Below are positions 2,419 to 47,386 of a DNA stretch of 64,000 nucleotides, one piece after another (position 1 is the stretch's first letter; each line of letters opens with the position of its first letter). A program made the position numbers and the translations under genes. This stretch comes from an uncultured Eubacteriales bacterium (lineage in GTDB: Bacteria > Bacillota > Clostridia > Oscillospirales > UMGS1783): positions 160,508 to 224,507 of the forward strand of contig CAKSHC010000002.1 in NCBI GenBank assembly GCA_934456365.1, in the 5' to 3' direction. The notes under the pieces are model-generated. The model searched no databases. It was not told the origin of the DNA and saw only the letters and a list, made by a program, of their open reading frames with translations.

Positions 2419-2510
2419 GAGTAGCATGAGAAAGGATGCCCGTTTGCATTCGTTTTTCCCTTCGGCCGCCCGGGCCGGGGGTGCAGATCATTCCAATAGG
2501 AGGAATCCAG

Positions 2511-7282: not shown

Positions 7283-7837
7283 TCAGCTCTCCTTTTTTTC
7301 GATCAGAAAGAAGAAGGGGGCCGCGGGGGAATTGACGATGCGCACCAGGGTGGCGCAGAAGGCGAAGCGGCTGAGGGCGGAGAGCTCTTGGCGGATGAGC
7401 TCGCCCTCGGCGGCTCCCTCGGGGTGCCCGGGATAGACGGCCACCAGCAGCGCTCCGCCGGGGGCGAGGAGCTCCAGGGCGGCGCGGATGGCGGGCAGGG
7501 TGCTTTCGCGGCGGGTGGTCACGCTTTTATCGCCGCCCGGGAGCCAGCCGAGGTTGAAGAGCCCGGCGGCGATCGGCTCGGGGATATGGGCTTTGGCGTT
7601 GGCGTGGGAATCGTGGATCAGGGTGACGTTTTCGCGGCCATGCTCTTTTAAGAGGGCGGCCGTTTTGGAGAGGGCCTGGTCCTGGATATCGAAGGCATAG
7701 ACGCGCCCGGTTTCGCCGACCTGCTCGGAGAGCCAGAGGGTGTCGTGGCCGTTGCCCATGGTGAAATCCGCGGCGGCGGCGCCGGGGAAGAGGTGCGGCG
7801 CGATCAGCGCTTTTTGGGTGGAGAGAAGATCGATCAT
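7283..7837 (-). CDS. class I SAM-dependent methyltransferase (putative rRNA methylase, YtqB-like)
   Basis: 184 aa. The motif DFTMGNGHDTL...YAFDIQ fits the small putative rRNA methylase family. Confidence 0.65.
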   Translation of the reverse strand: MIDLLSTQKALIAPHLFPGAAAADFTMGNGHDTLWLSEQVGETGRVYAFDIQDQALSKTAALLKEHGRENVTLIHDSHANAKAHIPEPIAAGLFNLGWLPGGDKSVTTRRESTLPAIRAALELLAPGGALLVAVYPGHPEGAAEGELIRQELSALSRFAFCATLVRIVNSPAAPFFFLIEKKES

Positions 7838-8796
7838 TCTCTTACCTCGCTTTGCGGGAAGCGGGATTCGGTGAACTCGCGCAGGGCCCCGTCGTAGCGC
7901 GCGGGATCGGTCACGCGCAGGTGGGAATGCTTGCCGTGGGGGAACCAGACGACCATTTTATCGCTCTTTGTGCGGGCGATGATCTGTTCGGCGCGCTCGG
8001 GGAGGGAGAACACGTCTTCCCGGCTGTGGAGGAAGAGGATGGGGACTTTCAGGCGGGGCACAGAATAGTAGGGCCCGTGGGTGAAGGGATTTTTCCCGCT
8101 GTGGAGGAAGAGGAGGAACATGCATTCCTGCAGAACGGGGAAGGTGGGCTTATGGAGCTGCTTCATGTGGGTGCGGAAGGTTTCGGCGAAGGTGGTGAAG
8201 GCCCCGTCGGCGATCACGCCGTCCACGCAGCCCGGGCAGGCCGGATCGGTTGCGGCATAGAGGGCGGTGGCGCTGCCGATGCAGACGCCGTGGAGCAGCA
8301 CGCGCTGGCCCATTTTTTCCAGAAGGCGAAGCCAGGCGAGAACGTCGCGGTACTCGCGCAGGCCGACGGTATTGTATTTCCCGTCGCTTTTGCCGTGGGC
8401 GCGCCCGTCGATGACCAGCACGTTATAGCCGAGGGCTTTGTAGGGGATGGCGAAGTAGTAGGAATAGGTGAGGGCTTCGGCGCGGCCGGAGAGGAGAAAG
8501 ACGGTGCGGGGAAAGCCGAAGTCGAACCATTCGCCGTAGAGGTTGAAGCCGTCGTTTTGGATGTGCAGATCGGTTTTATGGGCGGCGTTTTGGGCACCCC
8601 AGGCCATGCCTTCATTGAACATGCGCACAGCCTCGGGATCCTCGGGGAAGGAGCAGACGCCGCGCGCCCAGTCGCTTTTCGAGCGGCGCACGAGCTGGCG
8701 GCGGTAAACGTCGGCTGCGAGGGGGAAGGTGAAGCAGAAAAGCCCCACCACCGATAGGGCCAGAAGGCCCAGCAAGATCCAGAAAATCAGCTCCAT
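7834..8796 (-). CDS. membrane-anchored alpha/beta hydrolase
   Basis: N-terminal TM helix, HGKSDG and GVCIGSAT nucleophile-elbow motifs. Confidence 0.7.
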   Translation of the reverse strand: MELIFWILLGLLALSVVGLFCFTFPLAADVYRRQLVRRSKSDWARGVCSFPEDPEAVRMFNEGMAWGAQNAAHKTDLHIQNDGFNLYGEWFDFGFPRTVFLLSGRAEALTYSYYFAIPYKALGYNVLVIDGRAHGKSDGKYNTVGLREYRDVLAWLRLLEKMGQRVLLHGVCIGSATALYAATDPACPGCVDGVIADGAFTTFAETFRTHMKQLHKPTFPVLQECMFLLFLHSGKNPFTHGPYYSVPRLKVPILFLHSREDVFSLPERAEQIIARTKSDKMVVWFPHGKHSHLRVTDPARYDGALREFTESRFPQSEVRE

Positions 8797-8806: not shown

Positions 8807-10375
8807 TTACGAGTGGGTCACGCCCACGATCAATTCATCCACATCCTGCCCGCCCCAGATCACACCGGTATCGGTGAGCGGGAAGGCTTCACGCAGCGTA
8901 TCCTCCAGGGCATAGCAATCGTCGGCGTTCAGGGACTGGCCGTAGAACAGGACGGCCATTTCGCGATCCTTTTCGGGGATTTGAGAAAGAGCCCGGCAGA
9001 GGACCTCGCCGCGGTCTTCTCCGGCTGCGATCAGGCGGCGGTCCAGCAGGGCCACGCAGTCGCCCTCGCGGCAGGAAACGCCGCCGATCTCGGCTTGGCG
9101 CACGGCGCGGCACAGGCGCAGGGTGGCGACGCTTTCCATGCCGCGCTGCATGGCGGCAAACTGGATGGCGGGATCGGTTTCCTGCGGGACGATCATGGAG
9201 AGGGCGAAGTAGCCCTCGACGAGCGAGCGGGTGGGCAGGATCCGCACGGTTTTCTTTTCGAAGAGCTCGGTGGCCTGCCGGGCGGCGGGGAGAAGGTCGG
9301 GATCGTTGGGGAGGACGATGATGGAATCGGCGTTGAGCGAGCGGTAGGCCTGGAGGAACTCCTCGGTGGAGGTGTTCATGGTTTGGCCGGCGTTGATCAC
9401 GAGGTCGCAGCCGAGGGATTCGAAGGTTTCGAGAAACCCGTCGCCCTGGGCGGCGGCGACGAAGGCGATGGCCTTATGCTCGCGCGCCGGCTCGGCGGGG
9501 GAGGCGGCGGCTTCGTCCATATTTTCGATTTTGGCGTGGACGAAGGTGCCGTATTTTTCGGCCTTTTGGAAGACCTCGAGCGGTTTTTTGGTGTGGACGT
9601 GGACCTTCACCAGGTCCCCTTCGCGGATGGCGACGATGGAGCGGCCGAGCGTTTTCAGATAGTCGATAAAGGAATCGATGTCGAAGCTCAGGTCGCGCTC
9701 GGGCAGGCGCAGGAGAAATTCGGTGCAGAAGCCGTAGGGCTCCTCCTTCTGCGGGTAGTTGACGGCCGAGCGCACGCTTAAGAGCCCTTCCACGCTGCCT
9801 TTGGAGAAGAGGGTGACCAGGCCCTGGCCGCCGCTGTCGACCACGCCGGCCTCCTTGAGGACGGGAAGCATTTCGGGGGTGCGGGAAAGGGTTTTGGCGC
9901 AGGCGTCGCGATAGATCGCCCAGAGCTCTTCGGCGGGAAGGCCCTCGCGAACGGCGGCCTGCGCCGCCCGGGCGCCTTCGCGCGAAACGGTGAGGATGGT
10001 GCCCTCGGTGGGGTTGACCACGGCGGCGGCCGCCTTTTCGGCGCCCCGGCGCAGGGCCTGGGCCAAGAGGGCGGCGTCGGCGCTTTCGTGGCCTTCAAAT
10101 GCCTGCGCGATACCCTTAAAGAGCTGCGACAAAATGACGCCCGAATTGCCGCGCGCGCCGAGCAGCATGCCCAGCGAGAGCTCGGCGGCGTATTGGCCGA
10201 GGTTTTCGTTGGAGCGGGCGCGGTTGAGCCCGTTTTCCACCGTCAGGCGCATATTGGTGCCGGTGTCGCCGTCGGACACCGGGAAAACGTTCATGGCGTT
10301 GATGGCCGTTTCCTGATTTTTCAGATTTTGCCAGCCGACCCGCACGAGGGTCTCAAAGAATGTTCCGGTCAACAT
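8807..10375 (-). CDS. fakA: DAK2-domain fusion protein YloV (fatty acid kinase ATP-binding subunit FakA family)
   Basis: The DGDTGTNM Dak2/DhaL motif near the N-terminus and the 522-aa length match YloV/FakA. Confidence 0.75.
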   Translation of the reverse strand: MLTGTFFETLVRVGWQNLKNQETAINAMNVFPVSDGDTGTNMRLTVENGLNRARSNENLGQYAAELSLGMLLGARGNSGVILSQLFKGIAQAFEGHESADAALLAQALRRGAEKAAAAVVNPTEGTILTVSREGARAAQAAVREGLPAEELWAIYRDACAKTLSRTPEMLPVLKEAGVVDSGGQGLVTLFSKGSVEGLLSVRSAVNYPQKEEPYGFCTEFLLRLPERDLSFDIDSFIDYLKTLGRSIVAIREGDLVKVHVHTKKPLEVFQKAEKYGTFVHAKIENMDEAAASPAEPAREHKAIAFVAAAQGDGFLETFESLGCDLVINAGQTMNTSTEEFLQAYRSLNADSIIVLPNDPDLLPAARQATELFEKKTVRILPTRSLVEGYFALSMIVPQETDPAIQFAAMQRGMESVATLRLCRAVRQAEIGGVSCREGDCVALLDRRLIAAGEDRGEVLCRALSQIPEKDREMAVLFYGQSLNADDCYALEDTLREAFPLTDTGVIWGGQDVDELIVGVTHS

Positions 10376-10384: not shown

Positions 10385-11716
10385 TTACTTCCGGTCTTTG
10401 CCGATGGCGTCGATCGACGCGGGCAAAAAGAGCGACAGGATCGCCGAAGCCACCGCAGCGGCGATCACGAGATAGGGCATGGCGAAGCTCAGGCCGGCGT
10501 TTTTCAGATTGATCCAGACCGGCCCGACGGCCACGGCGGTGGCCAGGCCGGAGAAGAGGCCCTGGACGGCGAAATACATGGCCGGGTGCGACACGCCCTT
10601 ATCCACGGCGTCGCGGTGGGCGAGCGCCGAGGGGATCACATAGCCGACCGAGAAGAAGCTGCCCACGCCGAAGGAGGCGCACAAAGCGCCCAGGCAGGCA
10701 ATCGGCAGGCGCAGCGCCTGCGGCAGCGTTGCCGCCAGCGACATGGCGCACATGGCCACGATGAAGGTGCCGATCGAATAAAGATAGCCGACGCGGAAGC
10801 CGAATTTATGCACGATCTTGTTATAAAGCAAAAGGGTGAAGGGCACGGGGGCAAACACGCAGGCGGTGAGCACCGTGATCTGCCAGCCGACGAAAAGAAG
10901 GGTGCCGGAATAGTAGACGTTCTGGGCGGTGAGGAAAAGCTGAAGACAAAACTGCAGCGCGCAGTAGACGCCCATCCAGAGCCAGAAATGGCCGTTTTTG
11001 AAGGTGTATTTCAAGGATTCGATCATCCCGACCTGCTTTTCCACCGCAAGCTCCGGCTGATCCTTTTTGAGCGAGGAGGGCTCCTTGATGAGGAAGAGGG
11101 GGATGAGCATGGTGAGCACGAAGGGCAGGCAGATCAGGGCGATGGTGCGGATGTTGAGGTTGCCGACCAGCAGGGGGATCAGGGCATAGCCGACCACGAA
11201 ATAGATGATGTCGAAGGTGGATTTATAATTGGAAAGGCGCAGACGATCCTGCTCGTTGTCCACGATCTCGGAGAAGGTGGCATAATAGGTGACCATCACC
11301 AAGGTGTAGGCGCTGTAGAAGAGGCAGAGCAGGAAGCCGAACCAGACGGTGTTGAGCAGGCTCTCGCCGTTGGTGAGGGGCAGGAGGAAGAGGAGGTAGG
11401 CCGCGATCATGGGGATCATACCCGCCACGATCGAGGGGCGGCGGCGGCCGAAACGTGAGCGCAGGTTGTCGGTCAGGCTGGCGAGGGGGATGTCGATCAG
11501 CCCGTCGACGATCTTGGCTACCAGCACCAGCACGCTCCAGATCCCGGCGACGACCAGCGTTTTATTGAGGTAGGTCCAGTTTTCGATGTTTTTGGAAAAG
11601 CCCTGGGTCATGAGCGCGTCGCAAAGGTAGGAGGTGACGATCAGGTTGAGAAGATTGACCCCGCAGCCGCTGGCGGCATAGAGAAAGAGGGTGGATTTTT
11701 TCTGAATGGTTTTCAT
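10385..11716 (-). CDS. MFS transporter, GPH/MFS_2-like (D-x-x-G-R-R-R-P loop motif)
   Basis: 443 aa with about 12 TM segments. The LASLTDNLRSRFGRRRP motif between TM2 and TM3 is typical of the MelB/MFSD2A-type subfamily. Confidence 0.7.
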   Translation of the reverse strand: MKTIQKKSTLFLYAASGCGVNLLNLIVTSYLCDALMTQGFSKNIENWTYLNKTLVVAGIWSVLVLVAKIVDGLIDIPLASLTDNLRSRFGRRRPSIVAGMIPMIAAYLLFLLPLTNGESLLNTVWFGFLLCLFYSAYTLVMVTYYATFSEIVDNEQDRLRLSNYKSTFDIIYFVVGYALIPLLVGNLNIRTIALICLPFVLTMLIPLFLIKEPSSLKKDQPELAVEKQVGMIESLKYTFKNGHFWLWMGVYCALQFCLQLFLTAQNVYYSGTLLFVGWQITVLTACVFAPVPFTLLLYNKIVHKFGFRVGYLYSIGTFIVAMCAMSLAATLPQALRLPIACLGALCASFGVGSFFSVGYVIPSALAHRDAVDKGVSHPAMYFAVQGLFSGLATAVAVGPVWINLKNAGLSFAMPYLVIAAAVASAILSLFLPASIDAIGKDRK

Positions 11717-11720
11717 CGGT

Positions 11721-12674
11721 TCATGCCTTTCCCAGAATATGATCGATCAAAGCCTTTTCTTCGGCGAGATCCTCGGAGATGGGCTTGCCGAAATAATAGG
11801 CCGACATCAGCCCCGGGCCGACGTTGACTCCGTTGGCGGGGTAGACCTCGGTGAGCAGGATCTCTTTGGGAGCGAAGGTTTCGCGCACAAGCTCGACCAA
11901 AAGCTCGGCCTGCCTTTTCCGATCGGAATAGGCGATCACCACGATCTGCTCGGAGGGGTTTTCAATGGTTTTTTCCATATAGCGCAGGATGGCGTCGAGC
12001 CCGGCGCGCTCGCCCTTGGCCTTGCCCAAAACGGTGGTTTTGCCGCTCCGGTCGATCTCACCGAGAGGCTTGATGCCCACCAGTGTGCCAAAGAAGGCGG
12101 CACTGCCCGAAACGCGCCCTTTGCGGGCCACAAAGGTCAGATCGTCGAGCCAGCCCATCTGGTGGAAGCGGTCGCGGTTGGCGAGGAGCCAGGCGGCCGT
12201 TTCGTCAAGGCTTTCGCCGGCGGCGCGGTGGAGAGAGGCATGAATGGCCATCAGGCCGAAAAGGGAGGTGTAGCGTTTGGTATCCACGCAGATCACCCGC
12301 CGTCCGGGGCAGGCGGCCATGGCTTCCTCGGCGCCCCGGCAGGCGAAATCGTAGGTGCCGGAAAGGCCGGAGGAGATGGTGAGGCAGAGCACATCTTCGC
12401 CCTTTTTCAGATGCTCCTGAAAGGCGAGGGAGAATTCGGTGATGTTGGCCGGAGAGGTGGTATAGACGGCGTCTTTACGGCGCAGGGAGGCGTAGAAATC
12501 CTTCTGCGGCATGAAATCCCATTCGCAGCGGGAAGGGCGCTCGGTTTTATCGGGCAGGGTGATGTGTCCCGGGATCACCTCGATCCCGAATCTTTTCTGC
12601 AGCTCGGGGGAGAGGTCGCAGGTAACGTCGGCCAGGATGGTAAAAGACATGGCAAAGCTCCTTTCAGCAATCAC
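11721..12674 (-). CDS. DegV family fatty-acid-binding protein (FakB-like)
   Basis: 317 aa. The N-terminus ILADVTCDLSPELQKRFGIEVIPGHITL and the length fit DegV/EDD-domain proteins. Confidence 0.85.
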   Translation of the reverse strand: MIAERSFAMSFTILADVTCDLSPELQKRFGIEVIPGHITLPDKTERPSRCEWDFMPQKDFYASLRRKDAVYTTSPANITEFSLAFQEHLKKGEDVLCLTISSGLSGTYDFACRGAEEAMAACPGRRVICVDTKRYTSLFGLMAIHASLHRAAGESLDETAAWLLANRDRFHQMGWLDDLTFVARKGRVSGSAAFFGTLVGIKPLGEIDRSGKTTVLGKAKGERAGLDAILRYMEKTIENPSEQIVVIAYSDRKRQAELLVELVRETFAPKEILLTEVYPANGVNVGPGLMSAYYFGKPISEDLAEEKALIDHILGKA

Positions 12675-13587
12675 AGCTTGTCAAAAATTCGGAGAGGGCC
12701 TTTTCCAGCGGCGCACCGCCGGACAGAAAGCCCACGGCATGACCCGAGGCGGGCGAAAGGAAGAGCTCCTTACGCGCGGCGCAGGCCCTGTAGTTTTGCA
12801 GGGTATCGTCCGGGGAAACGACCCGGTCGGTTTCGGTGTGGAGAAAAAAGGTCGGAGTCCGGCAGCGAGAGAAGGCCTGCACCGTATCGCCGCCGGCGAG
12901 GGATGCGTGGGCAAAGAGGCGGGCAAAGAAATCGATCCCGCGGGCGATCAGAGGGGCAAAGGGGCCGAAGACCGGGCGGGCCAGACGGGTGATCTGCCGC
13001 AAGGGGGAGCGAAAGCCGCAGTCCACCATCAGAGCGTGCACGAAATCCGGCATTCGATCGGACAGGCGGGCAACGGTGTGGCCGCCCATGGAAAGGCCGC
13101 AGACCAGACAGGGCTCACCGCGGCGGCGGGCGGAGAGCTCGGTCAGCCAGCGGGCGAGGTCCTTTTCCTCGAGGGCTCCCAGGGTGATGCGGCGGCCGCC
13201 GCTTTCGCCGTGGCCGCGCTGCTCGATCATCAGGAGGTTGTAGCCGCGGCGGCGCAGGAAAAGCCCGAGTGAAGAAAAGTTGCTCAGATAAAAGGCCCGA
13301 TAGCCATGGACAAAAAGCGCTGTGCGGGAAAAGCCGCCGTCGTAGAAATGGCCGACGAGGCGGGCGCCGTCCTGTGCCCGGATTTCCCATTTTTGGGAGG
13401 GGAGGGCGCGGAGCTGAGCCATATCCTCCTTGAGGCGGGCGGCATAAGGGGCGTAGTGGGTGCGCGAAAGATCCAGCTCGTCGAGCGGGGGATCGGTGCC
13501 GCGGCGGGTGATCCGCTCAAAGAGAAAGAGGCAGATGGCAAAATAGATCAGAAGATTTCCCAGCAGGATCAGGAGAGCGATGGCCAT
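12664..13587 (-). CDS. membrane-anchored alpha/beta hydrolase (possible thioesterase/lipase)
   Basis: N-terminal TM helix, HGYRAFY...GHGESGG and GLSMGGHT serine-hydrolase motifs. Confidence 0.7.
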   Translation of the reverse strand: MAIALLILLGNLLIYFAICLFLFERITRRGTDPPLDELDLSRTHYAPYAARLKEDMAQLRALPSQKWEIRAQDGARLVGHFYDGGFSRTALFVHGYRAFYLSNFSSLGLFLRRRGYNLLMIEQRGHGESGGRRITLGALEEKDLARWLTELSARRRGEPCLVCGLSMGGHTVARLSDRMPDFVHALMVDCGFRSPLRQITRLARPVFGPFAPLIARGIDFFARLFAHASLAGGDTVQAFSRCRTPTFFLHTETDRVVSPDDTLQNYRACAARKELFLSPASGHAVGFLSGGAPLEKALSEFLTSCDC

Positions 13588-14576
13588 GTTGCCTCCTCTC
13601 CCCGCAGCCCGTCTTCGGTTTGCCGGACAAAAAAGCAGCGCAGTGAGGCCAGCTCATTTCCGGCGACCGAAAGGAAGACATCCGGCAGAGGCTGAAAGCT
13701 TTTGACCGGGGCATTTTCGGTTTCGATGGTTTTCGGTTCAAAACGCCCGGAGCCGAAGGCTTTGAAAAGGGCTTCCTTTTGGGTCCAGACCATCAGGAGC
13801 TTTTCCGGGCAAATGGCTTTCGCTTCCCGCTCGGTGAGAAAATGCCGGGCGGCGCCGTCTGGCGGGATGGCGCGGGCTTTGGCCTCCAGATCCACTCCCA
13901 CCGGTTTGCGGGAGAGGGCGACGGCGGCAAAGGAGCCGCTGTGGGACAGCGACAGGAAGCAGCGCTCGGAGAGGGGCTTGCCGTCGGCATTTTTATGGAC
14001 GGCGGCCCTTTCGGGGGTGAGCCCCAGCGAGCGGAAGAGGGCATACCCGAGCAAAAGACGGGCGAAGGCTCTTCTGCGCTTTTCCTCGCCCTCCGGCATG
14101 GCCGCCACCTCGGGATCTTTGATCGCGGGCAAAGGCGCGTCCGAGGCGATGGGAAGCAGGTAGACATCAAGCAGGGGACGCTCGCGCAGCGACCGGCGCA
14201 GCGCCTCGGCCTGGGTGCAGACCGGCTTTCCCGTCAGGCAGGAGGTGGCGAAATGCTCGCAGTTGTTGGTGAGGATATGGTAGCCGCGTTCGCCGAGGCG
14301 CGAAAGCGCGCACTGGGCGACCTTTTCGCGCGGGCGGGCCTGCAAACGCTCGAGGGGCGAGAGGGAGCAGACCTCCAAAAAGCCGCCGGCCAGGAAATCG
14401 GACAGGTCGGTGGCGAGCACCTCGATCTGCTCGGCGGGGGTGGGGTCGTGGTGGATGGGGTTGCGGCCGAACTGGACCACGCAGTCATCCGAGAGGTAGA
14501 CCCCGTAGTGGTAGAGCCCGTGGAAGCCGACCCGGATCAGGTCGCCGCGGCGGGCGGAGGTCAGGATCCATTTCAT
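13569..14576 (-). CDS. fusion protein: N-terminal LRAT/NlpC-P60-type papain-like acyltransferase domain joined to a C-terminal Sfp-type 4'-phosphopantetheinyl transferase
   Basis: The N-terminal roughly 130 aa carry HYGVY and NNCEHFATSC, the LRAT His/Cys catalytic motifs. The C-terminal half carries GKPL, LSLSHSG, GVDLE and WTQKEALFKAFG, which are the Sfp/EntD PPTase motifs. Confidence 0.65.
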   Translation of the reverse strand: MKWILTSARRGDLIRVGFHGLYHYGVYLSDDCVVQFGRNPIHHDPTPAEQIEVLATDLSDFLAGGFLEVCSLSPLERLQARPREKVAQCALSRLGERGYHILTNNCEHFATSCLTGKPVCTQAEALRRSLRERPLLDVYLLPIASDAPLPAIKDPEVAAMPEGEEKRRRAFARLLLGYALFRSLGLTPERAAVHKNADGKPLSERCFLSLSHSGSFAAVALSRKPVGVDLEAKARAIPPDGAARHFLTEREAKAICPEKLLMVWTQKEALFKAFGSGRFEPKTIETENAPVKSFQPLPDVFLSVAGNELASLRCFFVRQTEDGLRGEEATWPSLS

Positions 14577-14827
14577 TGGGCCGTTTTCGCCTCGATGAAA
14601 TCCACCACCTGAGAAACGGTTGTGAAATCGCCCATGCTCACCCCATCGAAGCGGATGTCAAAGGCCTCCTCGATGGCGATGACGATATAGAGGATCCCGA
14701 CCGATGAGAGACCGAGGTCGGTATGCAGATTGCTCTGCTCGGTCAGGCCGGCCAGTTTCTCTTCCGGCACGCTTCCCATCTGGCGGAGGATATCCGTCAG
14801 CTTTTCAAGAATGATCGCTCTGCGCAT
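14573..14827 (-). CDS. acyl carrier protein (stand-alone)
   Basis: 84 aa. The DLGLSSVGI motif is a phosphopantetheine-attachment site. Its start overlaps the PPTase-fusion gene by ATGA. Confidence 0.75.
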   Translation of the reverse strand: MRRAIILEKLTDILRQMGSVPEEKLAGLTEQSNLHTDLGLSSVGILYIVIAIEEAFDIRFDGVSMGDFTTVSQVVDFIEAKTAQ

Positions 14828-16319
14828 TTTTCTCCCTCAGAATCTTCATGCTGGGCGAACGCTCGAAATCGGCGTCGCGCACGATGATTTTGCTGACCCG
14901 TTCAAAGCCCGGCAGCCCGGCGTTGATTTTTTCCACTTCGGCGCGGATATGCGCTTCGGGATCGGCGATGCCCTGCGCCTTCAGGACGACCTGGCGCGGC
15001 ACCACCTGCAGGGAAAGGACCCCGTGGGAATCGACATAGACCAGGGAATCCTGGACGGCCTCGATGGTGTTGAAAAGCGTTTCCAGCTCGGCCGGAGAAA
15101 CCTTCTCGCCCGAGGGGAGCACCAGAACCTCCTTGATGCGGCCGGTGATGTAGAGGAAGCCTTCTTCGTCGAAGCGGACGAGGTCGCCGGTGCGCAGCCA
15201 GCCGTCGCAGAAGGCCTGCTTGTTGGCTTCGGGATCGAGGTAACCGTCCATGATGTTTTCGCCGCGCAGCCAGAGCTCGCCGTCGACGATCTTAAGCTCC
15301 TGTCCGGGATAGGGGAGGCCGACGGACGAGGGCTTTTTCAGGCTTTCGGGGTTGCCCGAAACGAGGTTGGCGCTTTCGGTGAGGCCGTAGCCGGCCAGCA
15401 GGGCGATGCCGAGCTTATCGTATTCCCGGATGAGGTAGGGCGGGACGACGGCGGCGCCGCAGACGATGGTTTTCAGATCGTCGCCGAGCATATTGCGGCC
15501 GAACTGCTTGGAGAGGTTGAGCGCCATTTCGGCTAGCGCCGGCACCATGACCATCACGGTGGGGCGGAAGGCGGCGATGTCGCGGAACATATCCTTGTTG
15601 TTGCGGGTGATGAAGATGGAGGAGCCGGTATAGAGCGAGGAGAGCAGGTTGCGGATCAGGCCGAAGACGTGGGTCAGCGGCAGGACCAGCAGGTAGCGCT
15701 GGCCGAAGATATCATGGATGCCGTAGCAGCCGTTGCGCACGCCGGCCATCAGCGCCCGGTGCGACAGCAGCGCGGCCTTGCTCTTTCCGGTGGTGCCGCC
15801 GGTGAAGAGCACGGTGGCGGGATCCTCGGGGGAAAGCTTGGCCATCGGCGCGCCCTGCTCGGGCAGGGAGGCGGCGGTGAATACGGGAACGCCGGTTTTT
15901 TCGGCGGCGAGAGCGGTGTTGGGCAGCATCGGCTCGCAGGAGAGGAGCGCCTTGAGGGAAAAGCCCGCGGTGCAGCCCAAAACGGCCTCGGCCGGGAGGT
16001 GGGGCGGCAGAAGCACAGCCACGCAGCCCGCGGTGGCGGCGCCGAGGAAGAAGACGGCGAAATCGGCGCAGTTGGGAAGATAGAGGCCGACCCGATCGCC
16101 CTTTTTCACGCCTTTTTCGGCCAGCGCCCGGCGCACCCGGGCTGCGCGCTCCTCCAGAGCGGAGAAGGAAAGGGTTTCTCCGTCGACCACGGCGGGCGAA
16201 TCGCCGTACTGGGAAAGGCAGCTTTCCCACATCTCGGCAAGGGTGGGATAGCTTCGGATGCGGGCGAAGGTTTCGGGGGTGGTGTAGGCGGCAAAGCACT
16301 CGAGCTTGGGATCGGTCAT
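14805..16319 (-). CDS. AMP-dependent synthetase/ligase (fatty acyl-AMP ligase or acyl-carrier-protein synthetase-like)
   Basis: ANL motifs FTGGTTGKSKAALLSH (A3) and GYGLTESAN (A5). 504 aa. Confidence 0.8.
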   Translation of the reverse strand: MTDPKLECFAAYTTPETFARIRSYPTLAEMWESCLSQYGDSPAVVDGETLSFSALEERAARVRRALAEKGVKKGDRVGLYLPNCADFAVFFLGAATAGCVAVLLPPHLPAEAVLGCTAGFSLKALLSCEPMLPNTALAAEKTGVPVFTAASLPEQGAPMAKLSPEDPATVLFTGGTTGKSKAALLSHRALMAGVRNGCYGIHDIFGQRYLLVLPLTHVFGLIRNLLSSLYTGSSIFITRNNKDMFRDIAAFRPTVMVMVPALAEMALNLSKQFGRNMLGDDLKTIVCGAAVVPPYLIREYDKLGIALLAGYGLTESANLVSGNPESLKKPSSVGLPYPGQELKIVDGELWLRGENIMDGYLDPEANKQAFCDGWLRTGDLVRFDEEGFLYITGRIKEVLVLPSGEKVSPAELETLFNTIEAVQDSLVYVDSHGVLSLQVVPRQVVLKAQGIADPEAHIRAEVEKINAGLPGFERVSKIIVRDADFERSPSMKILREKNAQSDHS

Positions 16320-16321: not shown

Positions 16322-17578
16322 TCAGTCCTCCTTTTCGGTCAGTGATTTTAATTTCAGCTCGGTTTCATGGAGCTCGTTTGCGATTCGTTCGATCTCCTGC
16401 ATGGGGGGAAGGCCCTTGCAGGCGGGCAGGGCAACCGGCGCGCCGAAGGCCAGCTTCTGACGGTGCAGGATGTTTTTGCGCGGGGCGATATAGACCGGGA
16501 CGATGGGCACGCCGGCGCGCAGGGCCATGAGGATCATGCCGGTTTTGAAGGCGCCGACGGGGTCGCCGGTGCGGTTGAGGCCGCCCTCGGGGAAGATCTG
16601 GATGGCGCAGCCCGCCTTGAGCTCCTCTTCGACCAGCCGGAAGGAGGAGAGGCGGAAGTCGGCCTTATCCACGGGGATGCAGTGGAGCTGGCGGAAGAGC
16701 CAGGTGAGAAAATCGTTGGCGTAGAGCGCGCGGGTGGCCAGCGAATGCAGCCGGCGGAACCATACGGCCATCAGCATGATGACGGGGTCCAGGAAGGAGC
16801 GGTGGTTGGCCATATACAGAACGCCGCCCCGGGGGTGCTTTTTCGCTTCGTCGTTGAGATAGAAGCGCTTGGGGCGAAGAAAGAGCCAAAGCGGGAGGGC
16901 GCCAGTGACGCGCACGAATTCGTAGAAGACGTGGTTTTTCGGCGGCTCGAGGCGCTTTTCCTCCAAAAGGCGGCCCAGGGTGGCCACCCGGGCGCGCAGC
17001 AGCTCGGTCACGGCGGCGAGGTTTTCCTTTTCGGAGAGGGAATCGTCCCAATGCTCGGACACGAGAAAGGGCTTGCCGATGATGACCCGCGCGCGGCGCG
17101 GGGAGAAGTAGGAGCCGTTGGTGTAGACGGGGATAATGGGCTTGCCCGAAAGATGGGCCAGGTAGACGGCGCTGGTTTTGAAGGGCAGGAGGGGCGTTTC
17201 ATCCTTTCGCGGCAGGCGCGATTCAGGGAAAATGCCGACCACGCCGCCCTTTTCGAGGATGGCGAGGCATTCGCTGAGGAAGGAGAAGTTTTTCGAGCTG
17301 CGGTCCACGAAGATTCCGCCCATGGCCCGCAGAAAGGGGCCGAGCAGCTTTTTGCGAAAGAGCACCTCGGCCATGAGGGTGCGCAGGGTGCGGCCGAAAA
17401 AGACAAAGAGCAAAACGGCGTAGTCGAAAACCGAGGTATGGTTGCAGACCACGATCGCTCCGCCCCGGATGCGCCGGCTCTGGGCGGCTTTCTCTTCGTA
17501 GTAGACCTTGGTGCGGAAGCAGAACCACTGGATGGGCCAGGCCGTGATCTTCACGAAGGCGTTGAAAAAGCGGATCAT
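16322..17578 (-). CDS. tandem lysophospholipid-acyltransferase (PlsC/LPLAT) didomain protein
   Basis: Two HX4D acyltransferase motifs in one 418-aa polypeptide: VCNHTSVFD in the N-terminal half and MANHRSFLD in the C-terminal half. Confidence 0.75.
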   Translation of the reverse strand: MIRFFNAFVKITAWPIQWFCFRTKVYYEEKAAQSRRIRGGAIVVCNHTSVFDYAVLLFVFFGRTLRTLMAEVLFRKKLLGPFLRAMGGIFVDRSSKNFSFLSECLAILEKGGVVGIFPESRLPRKDETPLLPFKTSAVYLAHLSGKPIIPVYTNGSYFSPRRARVIIGKPFLVSEHWDDSLSEKENLAAVTELLRARVATLGRLLEEKRLEPPKNHVFYEFVRVTGALPLWLFLRPKRFYLNDEAKKHPRGGVLYMANHRSFLDPVIMLMAVWFRRLHSLATRALYANDFLTWLFRQLHCIPVDKADFRLSSFRLVEEELKAGCAIQIFPEGGLNRTGDPVGAFKTGMILMALRAGVPIVPVYIAPRKNILHRQKLAFGAPVALPACKGLPPMQEIERIANELHETELKLKSLTEKED

Positions 17579-19458
17579 GCGCAGTCCCTCCCGGAAAGGA
17601 GGCGGCAGAAGTCCTCCACGGTGGCCGGGGCTTCCTGCCCGTCGGGCAGAGAGAAGCCGTAGGCGTCCTGAAGGGACGAGAGGAGGGAGAAATAATCCAG
17701 CGAGGAGCCGTTGAGGTCGAAGAAGAAGTTGGACTGCGGGGAGATGCCCTCGGGCTCGCGGTCGAGCGCCTGGGCAAACAGGCGGATCAGGGCATCGGTC
17801 AGCTCGCTGCGGCTTTCCTGAGCCGCTTCCCGGCCGGCGGGGCGCAGCTCGCCGTGCGCGAGGCGCTCAGCCAGTCGCTTGCGGCTGAGCTTGAAGTCCT
17901 CCGGCAAAAGGAGGGGGGAAACGGTCAGATAGAGCCCGACCTTGCCCAAAAGCCCGAGGCGGGAAAGCTCCTTCTGCGCTGCGTCGCGCAGGGCGGCGCA
18001 GGTCGCCTCGTCGGCAAAGGGGGAGAGCTGGATGAGAAGGGTGGGGCCGGAAACAAGGGCGAAGCCTTCGTTTTCCGGAAGCGAGAGCGAGGCTTCGATG
18101 AGGGTGGGGTTGAGGTTTTCCCCATCCGGGCCGATGACAAGATCGTCTTTCCGTCCGGCGAGGTAGAGGCGACCCTTTTTCAGCTCGGCCAGGTCGTCTG
18201 TTTTGAGCCAGCCGTCGGGCTTTTCCAGTTCACTGGCGGAGGTGAAAACGCGTTGGGCGGTGGTTTCGCCCCGCAGGAAGAGCTCGCCTTGCTCGGTTTT
18301 GTAGAAAACCGAGGCGAAGGGCTTTCCCGCCGAGCCGGAGATGCGCGTGCGGGGCACGCGGGAGAGCTCGACCGAGGTGATGCCGGCCTCGGTCATGCCG
18401 TAGCCGTTGGAAAGGCGGTAGCCGATGGCGTTGAAGAAGAGGAGCGTTTCGCGGGAAATGGCGCTGCCGCCGGCGATGGTGAAGCGGATGCTGCTGCCGA
18501 ACATTTTTGCGCGCACCGAAGAAAAAGCCAGCCTGGAAAAGAGCTTTGCCAGAAGCGGAAGGCCGGAAATGCGGTCATAGAGACGCAGGGCGCTTTGGAG
18601 CCTTTTCTCCTGCCCGGTTTTGCGGGCCTCGCGCAGCGCGGCGGCATAGACCTTATTCCAGAAGAGGGGCACGCAGAAGATGTGCGTGATCCCGTGCCAG
18701 CGCACCGTTTTGAGCACGGTATCGGGGGTGAGGTCGTTGAGGAAAACGAAGGTGCGCGAGAAGAAGGCGAACCACAGGTAAACGGCGAAGAGGCCGAAGA
18801 TATGATACAGAGGCAAAACGACCAGCTGCTTGAGGTGGCCCTGATAAAAGCCCTTCATATCGGGGCTTTTGCGGATGATGCGGCCGCTGTCGAAGATCTG
18901 CGCGGCAAGATTTGCGCCGGTATAGGCGCAGAGCTTGACCTCGCCGCCCGTGCCGGAGGACATCAGAAGAAGCTCGTTTGCCCAATGCGCTTCGGCCTCG
19001 CCTTCGTCCAAAAAGGGAGCCACGGTGGGGACGGCATAGGACGCCTCTTCGCTGACCACGGCGGCAACCTGATTGGCTGTCAGCAGCCGGTCGAGCGTTT
19101 GGCGATCCAGGCGGGTGTTGAGCAAAAGCGGGCGAAAGCCGAGCTGGGCGAGAGCCCACATCACGCAGAGGAAGTCCGGTCCGTTGGGCAGGGAAAGCCC
19201 TACGATCCGGCCTCTTTCCACGCCCGCAAGGCGCACGGAAAGGCCTGCGGCGAAGGCGCGGGTGCGCCGGTCGAAGTCGCCGTAGGTCATGAAATTCGTG
19301 TGCCCGCCGTCGCGGCTTTCGCAGAACACGGCGTCGCGCTGCTCGACGATCATTTCGTAGATCTCGTGCAGGGTGCGCCCGCTTGCCGCCAGGCGCGTGA
19401 CCTTATCGGCCACGAAGGCATCAATGGTTGAAAATCCACCGAGGAAATCTGGTTTCAC
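17575..19458 (-). CDS. adenylation (AMP-binding) domain fused to a C-terminal carrier (PCP/ACP-like) domain
   Basis: GTG start with a ggaaagga RBS. It has a deviant A3 motif LMSSGTGGEVK and a YGMTE A5 motif. The C-terminal FFDLNGSSLDYFSLLSSL resembles a thiolation-domain Ser motif. Confidence 0.7.
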   Translation of the reverse strand: MKPDFLGGFSTIDAFVADKVTRLAASGRTLHEIYEMIVEQRDAVFCESRDGGHTNFMTYGDFDRRTRAFAAGLSVRLAGVERGRIVGLSLPNGPDFLCVMWALAQLGFRPLLLNTRLDRQTLDRLLTANQVAAVVSEEASYAVPTVAPFLDEGEAEAHWANELLLMSSGTGGEVKLCAYTGANLAAQIFDSGRIIRKSPDMKGFYQGHLKQLVVLPLYHIFGLFAVYLWFAFFSRTFVFLNDLTPDTVLKTVRWHGITHIFCVPLFWNKVYAAALREARKTGQEKRLQSALRLYDRISGLPLLAKLFSRLAFSSVRAKMFGSSIRFTIAGGSAISRETLLFFNAIGYRLSNGYGMTEAGITSVELSRVPRTRISGSAGKPFASVFYKTEQGELFLRGETTAQRVFTSASELEKPDGWLKTDDLAELKKGRLYLAGRKDDLVIGPDGENLNPTLIEASLSLPENEGFALVSGPTLLIQLSPFADEATCAALRDAAQKELSRLGLLGKVGLYLTVSPLLLPEDFKLSRKRLAERLAHGELRPAGREAAQESRSELTDALIRLFAQALDREPEGISPQSNFFFDLNGSSLDYFSLLSSLQDAYGFSLPDGQEAPATVEDFCRLLSGRDCA

Positions 19459-19543: not shown

Positions 19544-19572
19544 ATATTAACAGAACGGTCATTCTTTGTCAA
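19544..19572 (-). promoter_or_regulatory. strong sigma-A promoter driving the minus-strand lipid-module gene run
   Basis: On the minus strand: TTGACA-N17-TAATAT. An approximately 75-nt leader runs to the GTG start at 19458. Confidence 0.5.
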
Positions 19573-19602: not shown

Positions 19603-19631
19603 AAGCCGGAAGCCTGGGCTTCCGGCGCTTT
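19603..19631 (-). terminator. rho-independent terminator after the small acidic-tail gene
   Basis: Minus-strand hairpin gccggaagcccaggcttccggc followed by ttttctttcg. Confidence 0.5.
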
Positions 19632-22865: not shown

Positions 22866-24230
22866 ATGGATCTCAGAGAATTGTTTGCCGATCCCGAGCG
22901 TTTGAGCGGGCAGACGGTCCGGTTAGAGGGCTGGATCCGCAACCACCGCCGCCAGAAGGGCTTCGGCTTCATCGATTTTTACGACGGGACCTGCCTCCCC
23001 TCGCTTCAGCTGGTTTACGACGGCGCCCTGCCGGATTTCGACCGGATCGCCGCTCTGCGCGTCGGCTCGGCGATCCGCGCCGAGGGCGAGGTGGTGAAAA
23101 ACGAGCGCGGCGTCTGGGAGCTGCGGGTGGCTCGTATCGAGCTGGAGGGGGACTGCCCGGAGGATTATCCTTTGCAGCCCAAGCGCCATTCGATCGAGTT
23201 TCTGCGCGAGATCGCCTATCTGCGCCCGCGCACACGGCTGTTCCAGGCCGTTTTCCGGGTGCGTTCGGCGGCGGCGCAGGCCATCCACGATTATTTCCAG
23301 TCGCGCGGGTATGTGTATGTCCACACCCCGCTGATCACCGCCAACGACGGCGAGGGCGCGGGCAACACCTTTACCGTTTCGGCCTTTGATTTTGACAAGA
23401 TTTCGGGCAAGCCCGATTTTTCGAAGGATTTCTTCGGCAAGCAGACCTCGCTTGCCGTGACGGGGCAGCTGGAGGGCGAAACCTTCGCGATGGCCTTCAA
23501 GCGGATCTACACCTTCGGCCCCACCTTCCGCGCCGAGAATTCCAACACAAAGACCCATGCGGCCGAATTCTGGATGATCGAGCCGGAGGTCGCTTTCTGC
23601 GATCTTTCCCAGCTGATGGATCTGGAGGAGGATTTCCTCAAGGCCGTGATCCGGCAGGTGCTGGATACCTGCCCGGAGGAGCTTGCGCATCTGGATCGGG
23701 TGGCCGGAGGCGGCCTGATCGAGAAGCTGGAAGGCTTCCTGGCGGCACATGCCGTGCGGCTCACGCATGAGGAGGCCATCCGGGTTTTGCGCGAGTCGGG
23801 GGTGAAATTCGATTTCGAGCCCCGCTTCGGCGAGGATCTGGCCAAGGAGCACGAGAAGTATCTGACCGAGGTGTATGCCAAGGCGCCGGTTTTCGTGTAC
23901 GACTGGCCGAAGGAGATCAAGGCCTTCTACATGCGGCAGAACGACGACGGGAAAACCGTGGCGGCCGTGGATCTTCTGGTGCCCGGCGCGGGCGAGCTGA
24001 TGGGCGGCAGCCAGCGCGAGGAGCGCGAGCAGAAGCTGATCGACCGGATCGAGGAGCTCGGCATCAGCGCCGAGGCGATGGATTGGTACATCAAGCTGCG
24101 CCGCTATGGCGGCTGCACCCATTCCGGCTTCGGCATGGGCTTTGAGCGGCTGATTATTTATCTCACGGGCGTGGAGAACATCCGCGACGTGATCCCCTAT
24201 CCCAGAACACCCAACAACTGCGAATTTTAA
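22866..24230 (+). CDS. asnS: asparagine--tRNA ligase
   Basis: Start at MDLRELF behind an AAGGAG RBS. Class II motifs are present. The FTVSAFDFDKISGKPDFSKDFFGKQTSLAVTGQLEGE block is typical of AsnRS. Confidence 0.9.
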   Translation: MDLRELFADPERLSGQTVRLEGWIRNHRRQKGFGFIDFYDGTCLPSLQLVYDGALPDFDRIAALRVGSAIRAEGEVVKNERGVWELRVARIELEGDCPEDYPLQPKRHSIEFLREIAYLRPRTRLFQAVFRVRSAAAQAIHDYFQSRGYVYVHTPLITANDGEGAGNTFTVSAFDFDKISGKPDFSKDFFGKQTSLAVTGQLEGETFAMAFKRIYTFGPTFRAENSNTKTHAAEFWMIEPEVAFCDLSQLMDLEEDFLKAVIRQVLDTCPEELAHLDRVAGGGLIEKLEGFLAAHAVRLTHEEAIRVLRESGVKFDFEPRFGEDLAKEHEKYLTEVYAKAPVFVYDWPKEIKAFYMRQNDDGKTVAAVDLLVPGAGELMGGSQREEREQKLIDRIEELGISAEAMDWYIKLRRYGGCTHSGFGMGFERLIIYLTGVENIRDVIPYPRTPNNCEF

Positions 24231-24242
24231 GGAGGAGATCTC

Positions 24243-24641
24243 ATGCTCAAAGGCGGCATTCTGCATCCGCAGCTGCGGTCCCTGATGGGGCGGCTGCGCC
24301 ACATGGACACGCTGGTCATCGCCGACGCCGGGCTTCCCGTGCCGGCGGGGGTGGAGCGGGTTGATCTCGGCTGGCGGCCGGGCGATCCGGCGTATCTGGA
24401 TGTGCTCGAGGAGCTTCTGAAGGCCATGGTGGTGGAGCACGCCACCTTTGCCGAGGAGGCTTTGACCGTTTCTCCGGAATTTCATAAGAAGGCGCTGGCG
24501 CTTCTGCCCGAGGGCTGCCCGGTGGACTATCTGACCCATGCCGAGCTGAAAAAGCAGACCGAGAAGGCCATGGCGATCGTTCTCACCGGCGAGTTTACCC
24601 CCTATACCAACGTCATCCTGCGCTGCGGCTGCGCCTATTAA
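24243..24641 (+). CDS. rbsD: D-ribose pyranase / RbsD-FucU family mutarotase
   Basis: 132 aa. HMDTLVIADAGLPVP matches the RbsD/FucU active-site region. Confidence 0.7.
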   Translation: MLKGGILHPQLRSLMGRLRHMDTLVIADAGLPVPAGVERVDLGWRPGDPAYLDVLEELLKAMVVEHATFAEEALTVSPEFHKKALALLPEGCPVDYLTHAELKKQTEKAMAIVLTGEFTPYTNVILRCGCAY

Positions 24642-24647
24642 AAAGCC

Positions 24648-24676
24648 TTGACAAATGGGGCTTGTCCGGATATAAT
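24648..24676 (+). promoter_or_regulatory. sigma-A promoter for rpmH-rnpA-yidD-yidC-jag
   Basis: TTGACA-N17-TATAAT. Confidence 0.55.
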
Positions 24677-24737
24677 AGATAAGCAAACTTTGTAAATTTC
24701 GGATTTTTCCGTTTCCGTTCATAAGGGAGGTGTCAAA

Positions 24738-24872
24738 ATGGTTCGTACCTATCAACCCAAAAAGCGCCAGAGAAGCAAGGTCCATGGCTTCCGCAAGAGA
24801 ATGCATACCGCTTCCGGCCGCGCCGTCCTCGCTCGCAGAAGAGCTCGCGGCAGAGCAAGACTGTCCCACTGA
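24738..24872 (+). CDS. rpmH: 50S ribosomal protein L34
   Basis: 44 aa, [44 protein letters not shown]. It is below the 60-aa cut-off of the ORF track. RBS is GGGAGG. Confidence 0.9.
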
Positions 24873-25486: not shown

Positions 25487-26515
25487 TTGAGCAGTATTCT
25501 TGATATCATCAACGTCCCCATCGGATGGCTGATGAGCTGGCTGTATTCCTTTACGCAGAACTACGGACTGGCCATCCTTCTTTTGGCCGTGCTGACCAAG
25601 CTCCTGCTGATCCCGCTGGGCATCAAGCAGCAGAAGGGCCAGCTTTCTCAGATGAAATTTGCGCCGCGGGTGCGCCGGATCCAGGAAAAGTATGCCAACG
25701 ATCCCACCCGGCAGCAGCAGGAGATGCAGAAGCTCCAGGCCGAGGGCTACAGCCCCACCGCCGGCTGCTCGACTCTGCTGATCCAGTTTCCGATCCTGAT
25801 CGGTATCTACAACGTCATCCGCTACCCGCTCCAGTATGTCTGCGGCCTGTCCAAGGACATCATCGAGCAGCTGCTGACGCTCTACAACTCCACCTTCGGC
25901 ACCGAAATGACGGCGCAGACGGCCGAGTATCAGGTCAAGATCGTCGACGCGCTCAACAAGGGCTGGGACGCTTCGTCCATCCTGGGCGACAAGGTGGTTT
26001 CCCTGAACCTGGACTTCCTCGGGATGAACCTTTCCGAGGTGCCGGCCAAGATCAATTATTTCCTGCAGTCGATCATCCCCATTCCCAGCTTCACCGACTG
26101 GCTCTGGATCATCCCGGTTGTGTCGGCGCTGACGGCGGCTCTGAGCACCATCATCGCCAACAAGATGGGCCCCTCGCGCTATATGCAGAACCCCGCTCAG
26201 AATCCGGGCAGCAAGAGCACCATGATCCTGATGAATGTTCTGGGGCCGTATATGTCGTATGCCATTGCGTTTTCTGTGCCGGCCGGTCTGGGCTTCTACT
26301 GGATCTGCTCCAACATTCTGATGGCGGTTCAGGCCTTTGTTCTCAATAAGGTTTACGATCCGAAGAAGTATAAGGAACAGTTCGAGCGGGAAGAGGCCGA
26401 GCGCATCGCCCGCCGCAAGAAGAAAAAGGCCGCCGCGGCCCGGATTGCCGCCGAACAGAAAAAGCAGCTTGCCTCGGCGCCCGAGGATTCGGCCGAATCC
26501 GAAAAGGAAGAGTGA
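25487..26515 (+). CDS. yidC: YidC/Oxa1-family membrane protein insertase (short Firmicute type)
   Basis: TTG start 7 nt after GGAGG. The track ORF start 25331 runs through yidD out of frame. 5-TM core with a C-terminal basic tail. Confidence 0.8.
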   Translation: MSSILDIINVPIGWLMSWLYSFTQNYGLAILLLAVLTKLLLIPLGIKQQKGQLSQMKFAPRVRRIQEKYANDPTRQQQEMQKLQAEGYSPTAGCSTLLIQFPILIGIYNVIRYPLQYVCGLSKDIIEQLLTLYNSTFGTEMTAQTAEYQVKIVDALNKGWDASSILGDKVVSLNLDFLGMNLSEVPAKINYFLQSIIPIPSFTDWLWIIPVVSALTAALSTIIANKMGPSRYMQNPAQNPGSKSTMILMNVLGPYMSYAIAFSVPAGLGFYWICSNILMAVQAFVLNKVYDPKKYKEQFEREEAERIARRKKKKAAAARIAAEQKKQLASAPEDSAESEKEE

Positions 26516-26520
26516 GAACT

Positions 26521-27357: not shown

Positions 27358-27361
27358 GAAG

Positions 27362-27396
27362 AAACGGAGGAGATTCAATCTCCTCCGTTTTTGATT
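27362..27396 (+). terminator. rho-independent terminator after jag
   Basis: Hairpin aaacggaggagat-tcaa-tctcctccgttt followed by ttgatt. Confidence 0.6.
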
Positions 27397-27635
27397 AAGG
27401 AAAGCTTCTGCGCGCGGGTGAGCCGCTTGACGGCCGCCTCCCGGCGCAGCGCTTCGCTGCGCGAGAGGGCCGGCTCTTGATAAACGAGGGAAACCGGGCG
27501 GCGCGAGCGGGTGTATTTTGCGCCGCGGCCGGCGTTGTGGGCGGCAAGGCGCCGGGGCAGATCGTTGGTCATCCCGGTGTAGAGCGTGCCGTCGGCGGTT
27601 TGCAGGATGTATACGGTGTAGGTTTTCTCGTCCAT
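27375..27635 (-). CDS. GIY-YIG nuclease-domain protein (UPF0213-like)
   Basis: 86 aa, YTVYILQTADGTLYTGMTNDLPRRLAAHN. Confidence 0.8.
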   Translation of the reverse strand: MDEKTYTVYILQTADGTLYTGMTNDLPRRLAAHNAGRGAKYTRSRRPVSLVYQEPALSRSEALRREAAVKRLTRAQKLSLIKNGGD

Positions 27636-27706
27636 GGCGGATGCGGCCTTTCCCTTCTTTTGGGTTCAGTATAGCATGGCGCGCCCGCCTTGTCAAAGGC
27701 GGCGGT

Positions 27707-43623: not shown

Positions 43624-43636
43624 ACTGCCTCCTGAT

Positions 43637-46118: not shown

Positions 46119-46141
46119 CTTCCGCTCCTTTCTCTTTTCCG

Positions 46142-47067: not shown

Positions 47068-47139
47068 TTCCCGCCCTCCCTTTCTATCAGGCTATTCGGC
47101 GGCATATCTATTTAATAAAAAAACAAGGGAGGAATTTCC

Positions 47140-47385: not shown

Positions 47386-47386
47386 G

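Follow-up and report, generated by a model that had tools for sequence, protein, structure and literature searches.

The window analysed here, that is, the whole stretch of 64,000 nucleotides (positions 160,508 to 224,507 of contig CAKSHC010000002.1) from an uncultured Eubacteriales bacterium, carries on its minus strand a gene (16322..17578, ATG start) for a protein of 418 amino acids (aa) in which two acyltransferase (AT) domains of the lysophospholipid acyltransferase (LPLAT) type, here called ATN and ATC, follow one another. The gene lies in a tightly packed run of about ten minus-strand genes, in which neighbours overlap or are separated by at most 10 nucleotides (nt). In order, the run encodes a ligase with a carrier domain (ligase 1), the double acyltransferase, a second ligase (ligase 2), an acyl carrier protein (ACP), an LRAT-like domain joined to a 4'-phosphopantetheinyl transferase (PPTase), a hydrolase, a DegV-like protein, a transporter of the major facilitator superfamily (MFS), FakA and a hydrolase with a Cys nucleophile.

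Two acyltransferase domains in one polypeptide

The gene was delimited from the list of open reading frames (ORFs), and its whole product matched Pfam family PF01553 in two separate stretches (E 2e-48). Scanned one by one, the N half (aa 26-152) reached 82.3 bits and covered profile positions 5-130 of 132, and for the C half (about aa 247-364) the score was 85 bits over positions 10-131 of 132; the gathering cut-off is 23 bits. The preliminary description of this DNA had proposed two tandem HX4D domains of LPLAT type from the motifs VCNHTSVFD (N46-D52) and MANHRSFLD (N258-D264), and we confirmed both, each HX4D standing at motif I. H47 and D52 of ATN align with the catalytic NHqslmD of Thermotoga PlsC (5kym), and the two halves align with each other at 30% identity over 166 residues (E 5e-20) with their NHxxxxD motifs superposed in register. 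N46, H47, D52, N258, H259, D264 and both FPE motifs are invariant in an alignment of 28 members, and the His and Asp of motif I are kept in both domains by 90/90 fused and split relatives, a set that ranges from under 35% to 94% identity.

ATN (aa 1-211, 16946..17578) holds motif I (N46-H47...D52; NHTSVFD at 17423..17443, with His47 and Asp52 as predicted catalytic residues), motif II GGIFVDR93, motif III FPESR121, motif IV PIIPVYT and a predicted C-terminal helix (183-210). ATC (aa 212-418, 16322..16945) holds motif I (N258-H259...D264; NHRSFLD at 16787..16807, with His259 and Asp264 predicted as catalytic), motif II IPVDK, motif III FPEGG and motif IV PIVPVYI. Over the 90 sequences the consensus is GGIxV[DN]R, FPE[SGA]R and P[IV]IPVYT for ATN, and IP[IV]D[RK], FPEGH[IV] and PIVPVY for ATC. 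The two differ in motif III: an Arg directly follows FPE[SGA] in 89/90 ATN sequences (R121 here) and in only 8/90 ATC sequences. In PlsB/PlsC-type enzymes the Arg of the EGTR motif binds the phosphate of the acceptor, and R121 is presumably its counterpart. Because motif III differs in this way (Arg in ATN, FPEGH[IV] in ATC), the reactions of the two domains probably differ too.

An AlphaFold2 model built on the alignment of relatives was confident (mean predicted local distance difference test score 86.4, predicted TM-score 0.71). It has the same order of secondary structure twice, each time a strand, the HX4D loop and a helix; the long helix 183-210 joins the repeats, and each catalytic core has helices on its N-terminal side in the manner of PlsC. 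All Foldseek matches of the model in the PDB belonged to the LPLAT superfamily, with 5kym best (E 4e-8), followed by PatA, plant GPAT, LpxM and human GPAT1. All five had a probability of 1.00, each covering one domain (TMq <=0.35), and none of the matches was a solved structure with a tandem LPLAT arrangement. By all the sequence and fold criteria tested, the modelled protein is a member of the LPLATs, with predicted acyl-transfer activity.

The best family-model scores were those of AGPAT (TIGR00530) and of the AT domain of Aas-type acyl-ACP:phospholipid acyltransferases (PRK08633). The TIGR00530 cut-off of 102.95 was passed only by the sum of both domains (142.7), and the E. coli PlsC equivalog model NF011593 (PRK15018) gave 49.8 bits against a cut-off of 501. 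With PlsC and AGPAT the protein shares, in each half, an entire PF01553 domain including motifs I-IV, and Thermotoga maritima PlsC (5kym) is the best sequence match (E 2e-8). It departs from PlsC in having two domains per chain, in the absence of the motif III Arg from ATC, and in its genetic setting, an operon that includes dedicated ligases, carriers and a PPTase rather than the housekeeping plsX/plsY/plsC context.

Fused and split forms and the operon they share

Among relatives of the 418-aa protein, a word-indexed search recovered some 40 clusters of full-length proteins with two domains (31-50% identity), together with many half-length proteins at 54-63% identity to the N half and one resembling the C half. 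HMMER over 1.84 billion cluster representatives returned 161 proteins at E 1e-30 or better, the top 150 of which included 53 ATC-only, 41 ATN-only and 52 two-domain proteins. Scanning one genome per species, we found relatives in at least 212 species genomes, and the carriers were almost all metagenome-assembled genomes (MAGs) of uncultured rumen and gut Clostridia (Lachnospiraceae, Oscillospiraceae, Ruminococcus), sampled from cattle, goat, sheep, deer, horse, chicken and human hosts.

We typed 84 loci by searching stop-to-stop ORFs with phmmer and then with family hidden Markov models built from the loci. ATN and ATC were separate ORFs in about 60 of them and fused in about 19, the window being an additional fused case, and ATN occurred without ATC in three. 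At the split junctions ATN ends in TAA, TGA or TAG, and ATC starts with ATG, GTG or TTG in another frame, preceded by a GGAG-like ribosome-binding site; the ATC start usually lies 8-44 nt upstream of the ATN stop, that is, the genes overlap, and they are predicted to be translationally coupled. In the window the linker RLEPPKNH (aa 209-216, 16931..16954), located by comparing the junction with split relatives, bridges the C-terminal helix of ATN and the N-terminal amphipathic helix of ATC, a helix that reads FYEFVRVTGALP here and whose counterpart in split ATCs is FYDFVKVTAAIP. Where the window has the linker, split forms have a tail rich in Lys, a stop codon, the start Met and a head rich in Lys. 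Judged from these sequences, the ATN/ATC pair exists in two forms that are interchangeable, and the single polypeptide is not the defining trait of the system.

Fused and split states are intermingled over at least 4-5 clades in neighbour-joining (NJ) trees, which provides a Rosetta-stone argument that ATN and ATC act together. With the two paralogues rooted reciprocally, fused forms branch off first in both subtrees and the split forms are nested inside them, and one protein, P0017, is re-fused within a split clade. Because internal branches are short, we limit our claim to repeated fusion or fission of ATN and ATC, as the trees indicate; a fused ancestor followed by fission seems the more parsimonious course. 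The three loci with ATN alone (L001, L021 and L030), which lack ATC, ligase 2 and ACP in an otherwise complete operon, form one clade nested among split forms.

The partner genes of the window, assigned by domain match unless stated otherwise and all on the minus strand, keep their functional residues across the related loci. Ligase 1 (17575..19458, 627 aa) has an AMP-binding domain and a C-terminal PP-binding carrier domain, and shares 4 nt at its stop with the start of the AT gene; its P-loop Lys is conserved in 80/80 and its carrier-domain Ser in 72/72 sequences. Ligase 2 (14805..16319, 504 aa, AMP-binding) has core motifs that are invariant across loci, and both ligases keep the P-loop Lys and the A5 and A7 motifs. 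The free-standing ACP (14573..14827, 84 aa) retains its Ser in 68/68 sequences. The next gene (13569..14576, 335 aa) encodes an LRAT/PLAAT-like Cys-His domain fused to the PPTase; the NCEHF motif of the former was aligned to PLAAT3/4, and its Cys and His are present in 69/69 sequences. This domain could serve to load the carriers from phospholipid or to edit carrier thioesters. It is of papain fold and stands alone in the Lachnospiraceae-type loci described below.

Hydrolase 1 (12664..13587), an alpha/beta hydrolase of the Hydrolase_4 family with a GxSxG motif, keeps its Ser in 62/62 sequences, has carboxylesterases as its nearest solved structures and begins with a hydrophobic stretch that is possibly a membrane anchor. 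It is followed by a DegV/FakB-like fatty-acid-binding protein (11721..12674), an MFS transporter of the GPH family (MFS_2; 10385..11716) and a FakA/YloV-type fatty acid kinase subunit (8807..10375; TIGR03599, 485 bits, above cut-off). The last conserved gene of the operon encodes alpha/beta hydrolase 2 (ABH2; 7834..8796), which was recognised by domain match and conservation and has a Cys in place of Ser at the nucleophile elbow (HG-I/V-C-I-G) in 56/56 orthologues. The residue aligned with it in esterase 5g59 is the Ser of GFSMG, and ABH2 also conserves the Asp and His; such a Cys-Asp-His triad suggests an acyl-thioester intermediate, and hence a transferase or thioesterase rather than a simple lipase.

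The operon recurs in the 80 loci examined, with the same gene order in four variants, and ligase 1 is present in essentially all of them. The majority type has split ATs, ligase 2, ACP and LRAT, with or without the PPTase domain and with or without the MFS; the Lachnospiraceae type has fused ATs, ACP and LRAT and lacks ligase 2, the PPTase domain and the MFS; the ATN-only type lacks ATC, ligase 2 and ACP; and a few loci have both ATs and neither ligase 2 nor ACP. Co-occurrence was counted in the 62 loci with adequate flanks (59 with two ATs, 3 with ATN only). The free ACP accompanied 55/59 two-AT loci and 0/3 ATN-only loci, and ligase 2 was present in 42/59 two-AT loci. Since fused ATs mostly lack ligase 2 (13/15 loci), the combination of fused ATs and ligase 2 seen in the window is uncommon. 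Fused ATs with ACP, lacking the second ligase and the PPTase domain, were seen in L005-L014, L016, L017 and L023 (Lachnospiraceae MAGs) and in L048, L072 and L077; the MFS is gone from the Lachnospiraceae MAGs and kept in the latter three. In loci that lack the second ligase, loading of the ACP could run via the LRAT domain, or via FakA/DegV and a PlsX encoded elsewhere.

Two further proteins join the acyltransferases to their operon partners, and Pfam confirmed the domains of both. P0206 (1101 aa, L087 3522-6827) combines AMP-binding, PP-binding, AT and AT domains in one chain, and P0191 (569 aa, L088 5202-6911), encoded directly downstream of a ligase gene, combines LRAT, AT and AT.

A proposed route from fatty acids to lipids and its alternatives

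Our preferred reading, to which we give a probability of about 0.55, is that two paralogous LPLATs of PlsC/AGPAT type are genuinely fused in the 418-aa protein, which forms the transfer core of a chromosomal fatty-acid-to-lipid operon and carries out two distinct acylations. Fatty acids would be captured, either on release by the hydrolases of the operon or by binding to the DegV/FakA system, and would be adenylated by ligases 1 and 2. Their acyl chains would then be loaded as thioesters onto the C-terminal carrier domain of ligase 1 and onto the free ACP, both carriers being primed by the operon's own PPTase. ATN and ATC would each pass one chain to a glycerol-type acceptor in two different O-acylations, most likely in sequence, from backbone through lyso-lipid to diacyl-lipid, and the fusion would merely tether two enzymes that in most relatives are separate and probably coupled in translation.

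We favour carrier-bound donors because of the content of the operon and the ligase-carrier-AT-AT fusion P0206; acyl phosphate, one of the donors named in the preliminary description, therefore appears less likely than acyl chains on the dedicated carriers encoded next door. The sequential double acylation suggested there would agree with the gene content of the operon and with the unlike motif III of the two domains; parallel action on two kinds of lysolipid is conceivable too. N-acylation, offered as part of the same suggestion, is unlikely, since both domains resemble O-acyltransferases of PlsC/AGPAT type and there is no OlsB-like domain. It is also possible, and we put it forward only tentatively, that the operon constitutes a self-contained route to diacyl glycerolipids from scavenged fatty acids and perhaps a scavenged backbone, with the two ATs performing the first and the second acylation. 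With the same reserve, the operon may apply carrier-protein logic, in the shape of dedicated ligase-carrier pairs, a PPTase of its own, a PLAAT-like Cys enzyme and the hydrolase with a Cys nucleophile, to the synthesis of membrane or bioactive lipids and so be a bacterial counterpart of double-acylation pathways like that for glycerophosphocholine (GPC).

In its functional logic the system most resembles Aas/LplT, and also the pathways in which a scavenged backbone is acylated twice. In E. coli Aas/LplT and in the MFS-AT-ligase fusions (PRK08633/PRK06814), an LPLAT, an adenylating ligase, a carrier and an MFS protein likewise re-esterify exogenous fatty acids, and the distant relative P0206 fuses ligase, carrier, AT and AT. 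In the window, however, separate genes encode the AT and the ligases, and the AT domain is present twice; instead of the housekeeping ACP there are dedicated carriers (a fused carrier domain and a private ACP with their own PPTase), and the MFS is of GPH type and not an LplT-type lysophospholipid transporter. Scores against the Aas equivalogs were 36 against a cut-off of 886 (NF005959) and 130 against 1221 (PRK08633), and the 418-aa protein contains no AMP-binding domain.

OlsF also unites two acyltransferase domains in one polypeptide and performs two successive acylations of one lipid. The preliminary description correctly pointed out that OlsF has a PlsC-like and a GNAT-like domain, as the papers on OlsF bear out. 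The PlsC-like O-acyltransferase of OlsF is N-terminal and of HX5D type, and its C-terminal domain is an N-acyltransferase resembling OlsB/GNAT, whereas the protein studied here has two HX4D PlsC-type domains, no OlsB-like domain and a score of 21.7 against the cut-off of 620 for the OlsF model NF052615. In the GPC pathway for phosphatidylcholine in streptococci, Xanthomonas and yeast, a deacylated backbone is taken up and acylated twice via a lyso-intermediate, and in streptococci the transporters and acyltransferases are still to be assigned (PMC6805115). SqdA, an LPLAT with a single HX5D domain, uses acyl-ACP to acylate sulfoquinovosyl-glycerol. The analogy with these routes is one of logic only, and GPC, lysophosphatidylcholine (lysoPC) and glycosylglycerol are merely candidate acceptors for the operon. 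The fatty acid amide pathway of gut Clostridia (PMC13310621) also involves a dedicated carrier loaded by an adenylating enzyme and a transferase; there, the transferase OaaC is a free-standing condensation domain of the kind found in non-ribosomal peptide synthetases (NRPS) and forms amides, whereas here an LPLAT O-acyltransferase pair is accompanied by FakA/DegV and hydrolases. Literature searches directed at tandem PlsC/LPLAT domains, at the LRAT-PPTase combination and at the logic of the operon yielded only OlsF, SqdA and the GPC and fatty acid amide pathways, with no description of a PlsC-PlsC tandem or of this operon.

Four alternatives have to be set against the preferred reading. The most serious, which we consider rather unlikely, is that the domains act in parallel in an Aas-like repair, each re-acylating its own class of lysolipid (1-acyl or 2-acyl, or distinguished by head group); the lysolipids would come from membrane damage or import, and scavenged fatty acids would be activated by the adjacent ligases. 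Such a role accords with the match of both halves to the PRK08633 AT domain (130 bits over two stretches), with a gene content of AT, adenylating ligase, carrier and MFS that mirrors the logic of Aas/LplT, with the unlike motif III of the two domains and with the loci L001, L021 and L030, where one AT and one ligase-carrier are self-sufficient. It is harder to reconcile with repeated fusion, strict adjacency and predicted translational coupling, which suggest cooperation in one pathway, with a transporter of GPH rather than LplT kind and with scores far under the Aas cut-offs. Less probable again is a specialised-lipid cluster of NRPS-like logic (ligase, carrier, PPTase and transferase) whose diacylated product would lie outside housekeeping metabolism, for example an acylated glycoside, a glycosylglycerol or some other bioactive lipid in place of ordinary membrane phospholipid. 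The conservation of FakA and DegV, a fatty acid kinase system, in the operon, the proximity of both ATs to glycerolipid enzymes of AGPAT/Aas type, and a conserved core that contains no glycosyltransferase or amino-acid-activating enzyme all tell against it. Nonetheless, a dedicated PPTase with two dedicated carriers is typical of specialised pathways, GPH-family transporters usually move glycosides, the ligases are as close to aryl/acyl-CoA ligases and NRPS A domains as to fatty-acid ligases, and the Cys-nucleophile hydrolase and LRAT domain are unusual additions; SqdA (acyl-ACP onto sulfoquinovosyl-glycerol) and the fatty acid amide pathway of gut Clostridia are precedents.

That the tandem is a redundant or degenerate duplication, with one domain dead, structural or regulatory, or a housekeeping PlsC with a decayed duplicate, is disfavoured and very improbable. 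Tandem duplicates do often lose one active site, and ATC lacks the motif III Arg, but the 90 sequences show little or no variation at HX4D, FPE(G) and motif IV in either domain family, ATC is kept as an independent gene in about 60 species, and the PlsC equivalog score falls far short of its cut-off, as given above. An artefact of assembly or a frameshift that joined two neighbouring genes might be suspected from the fact that most relatives have two genes in different frames exactly at the junction; this is refuted by the occurrence of the identical ORF on 18 contigs from three sources (NCBI, ENA and Logan; the longest of 346,794 bp), by a separate look-up in which 23 contigs carrying the protein were read, and by independent fused clades at 31-50% identity. 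In the cluster at 90% identity, which has 51 members (40 read), 12 of the 15 listed are likewise 418 aa long, and the only public name of the protein is the generic '1-acyl-sn-glycerol-3-phosphate acyltransferase'.

Several observations also weigh against the preferred reading of two successive, carrier-fed acylations. Sequence by itself would fit sequential and parallel action alike. A strict pairing of one ligase and one carrier with each AT domain had to be downgraded, as 17/59 two-AT loci lack ligase 2 and 4/59 lack the ACP. The joint absence of ATC, ligase 2 and ACP from the ATN-only loci is not independent evidence that they belong together, because these genes are contiguous and the loci form a single clade, so that a single deletion may account for it. 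The Rosetta-stone proteins P0206 and P0191 each come from one short metagenomic contig, the NJ trees are crude with short internal branches, and no cultured organism is among the 80 loci listed. PDB comparisons of both ligases found generic ANL relatives only, which makes their fatty-acid specificity putative. The transporter, too, is generic for its family: NCBIfam gave GPH/MelB-type models only, below their cut-offs, and the idea of an Mfsd2a-like lysoPC symporter arose from one weak PDB match (E 2.5e-4) that a profile of the 35-member MFS family did not reproduce, its sole match in the PDB being the sucrose transporter SUC1 (E 0.001). Because this profile test failed, we dropped the Mfsd2a lead as evidence for a lysolipid substrate.

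LPLAT/PlsC enzymes are classically single-domain proteins that draw on the housekeeping pool of acyl-ACP or acyl-CoA. Here a paralogous LPLAT pair is tied to ligases, carriers, a PPTase, a fatty-acid kinase system, hydrolases and a transporter of its own, and this conserved, uncharacterised operon is of greater interest than the tandem architecture itself. If our reading is true, the operon would represent a dedicated pathway by which abundant uncultured gut anaerobes turn dietary or host fatty acids into diacyl lipids, and would supply candidate genes for double-acylation scavenging routes that lack assigned bacterial enzymes (PMC6805115). The natural fused and split variants, and those with one AT or two, offer a ready experimental series. 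The finding extends a known enzyme family and introduces no new principle.

Transcription signals and the rest of the window

A promoter-like sequence, TTGACA-17-TAATAT with a TG extension (extended -10), lies on the minus strand at 19544..19572, some 85 nt before ligase 1 begins, and a terminator-like hairpin of 9 bp, 7 of them GC, followed by a T run is found at 19605..19626 on the same strand; both were recognised by consensus match only. The hairpin lies between the operon and the upstream DUF3842 and CapD-like polysaccharide genes. Because it is directly followed by the promoter-like site, the operon is probably a transcription unit apart from those genes. When the window was scanned with Rfam, the only match was a tRNA (54356-54427, minus strand), so that regulatory RNAs were absent from the vicinity of the operon, and there was no second LPLAT among the ORFs scanned elsewhere in the window.

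Several ORFs of 300-648 aa had no Pfam match at E 1e-5 or better, namely 22923-24869 (-), 26353-27696 (-), 29500-30570 (+), 46165-47067 (-), 57365-58606 (-) and 58443-60290 (-); in a window of 62% GC some of these may be spurious antisense frames and others genuine proteins. An ORF of 1152 aa (2436-5894, plus strand) gave a sub-threshold CBM_X2 match of 21 bits and may encode a large secreted or cell-surface protein. The remainder of the window is an ordinary spore-former chromosome, with GerA, YqfD, RecA, RecG, MutS2, Era, PhoH and YidC, and the set of sporulation and germination genes at 42368-49515 (spore permease, GerA, YqfD and PhoH) points to a spore-forming organism of the class Clostridia as the host.

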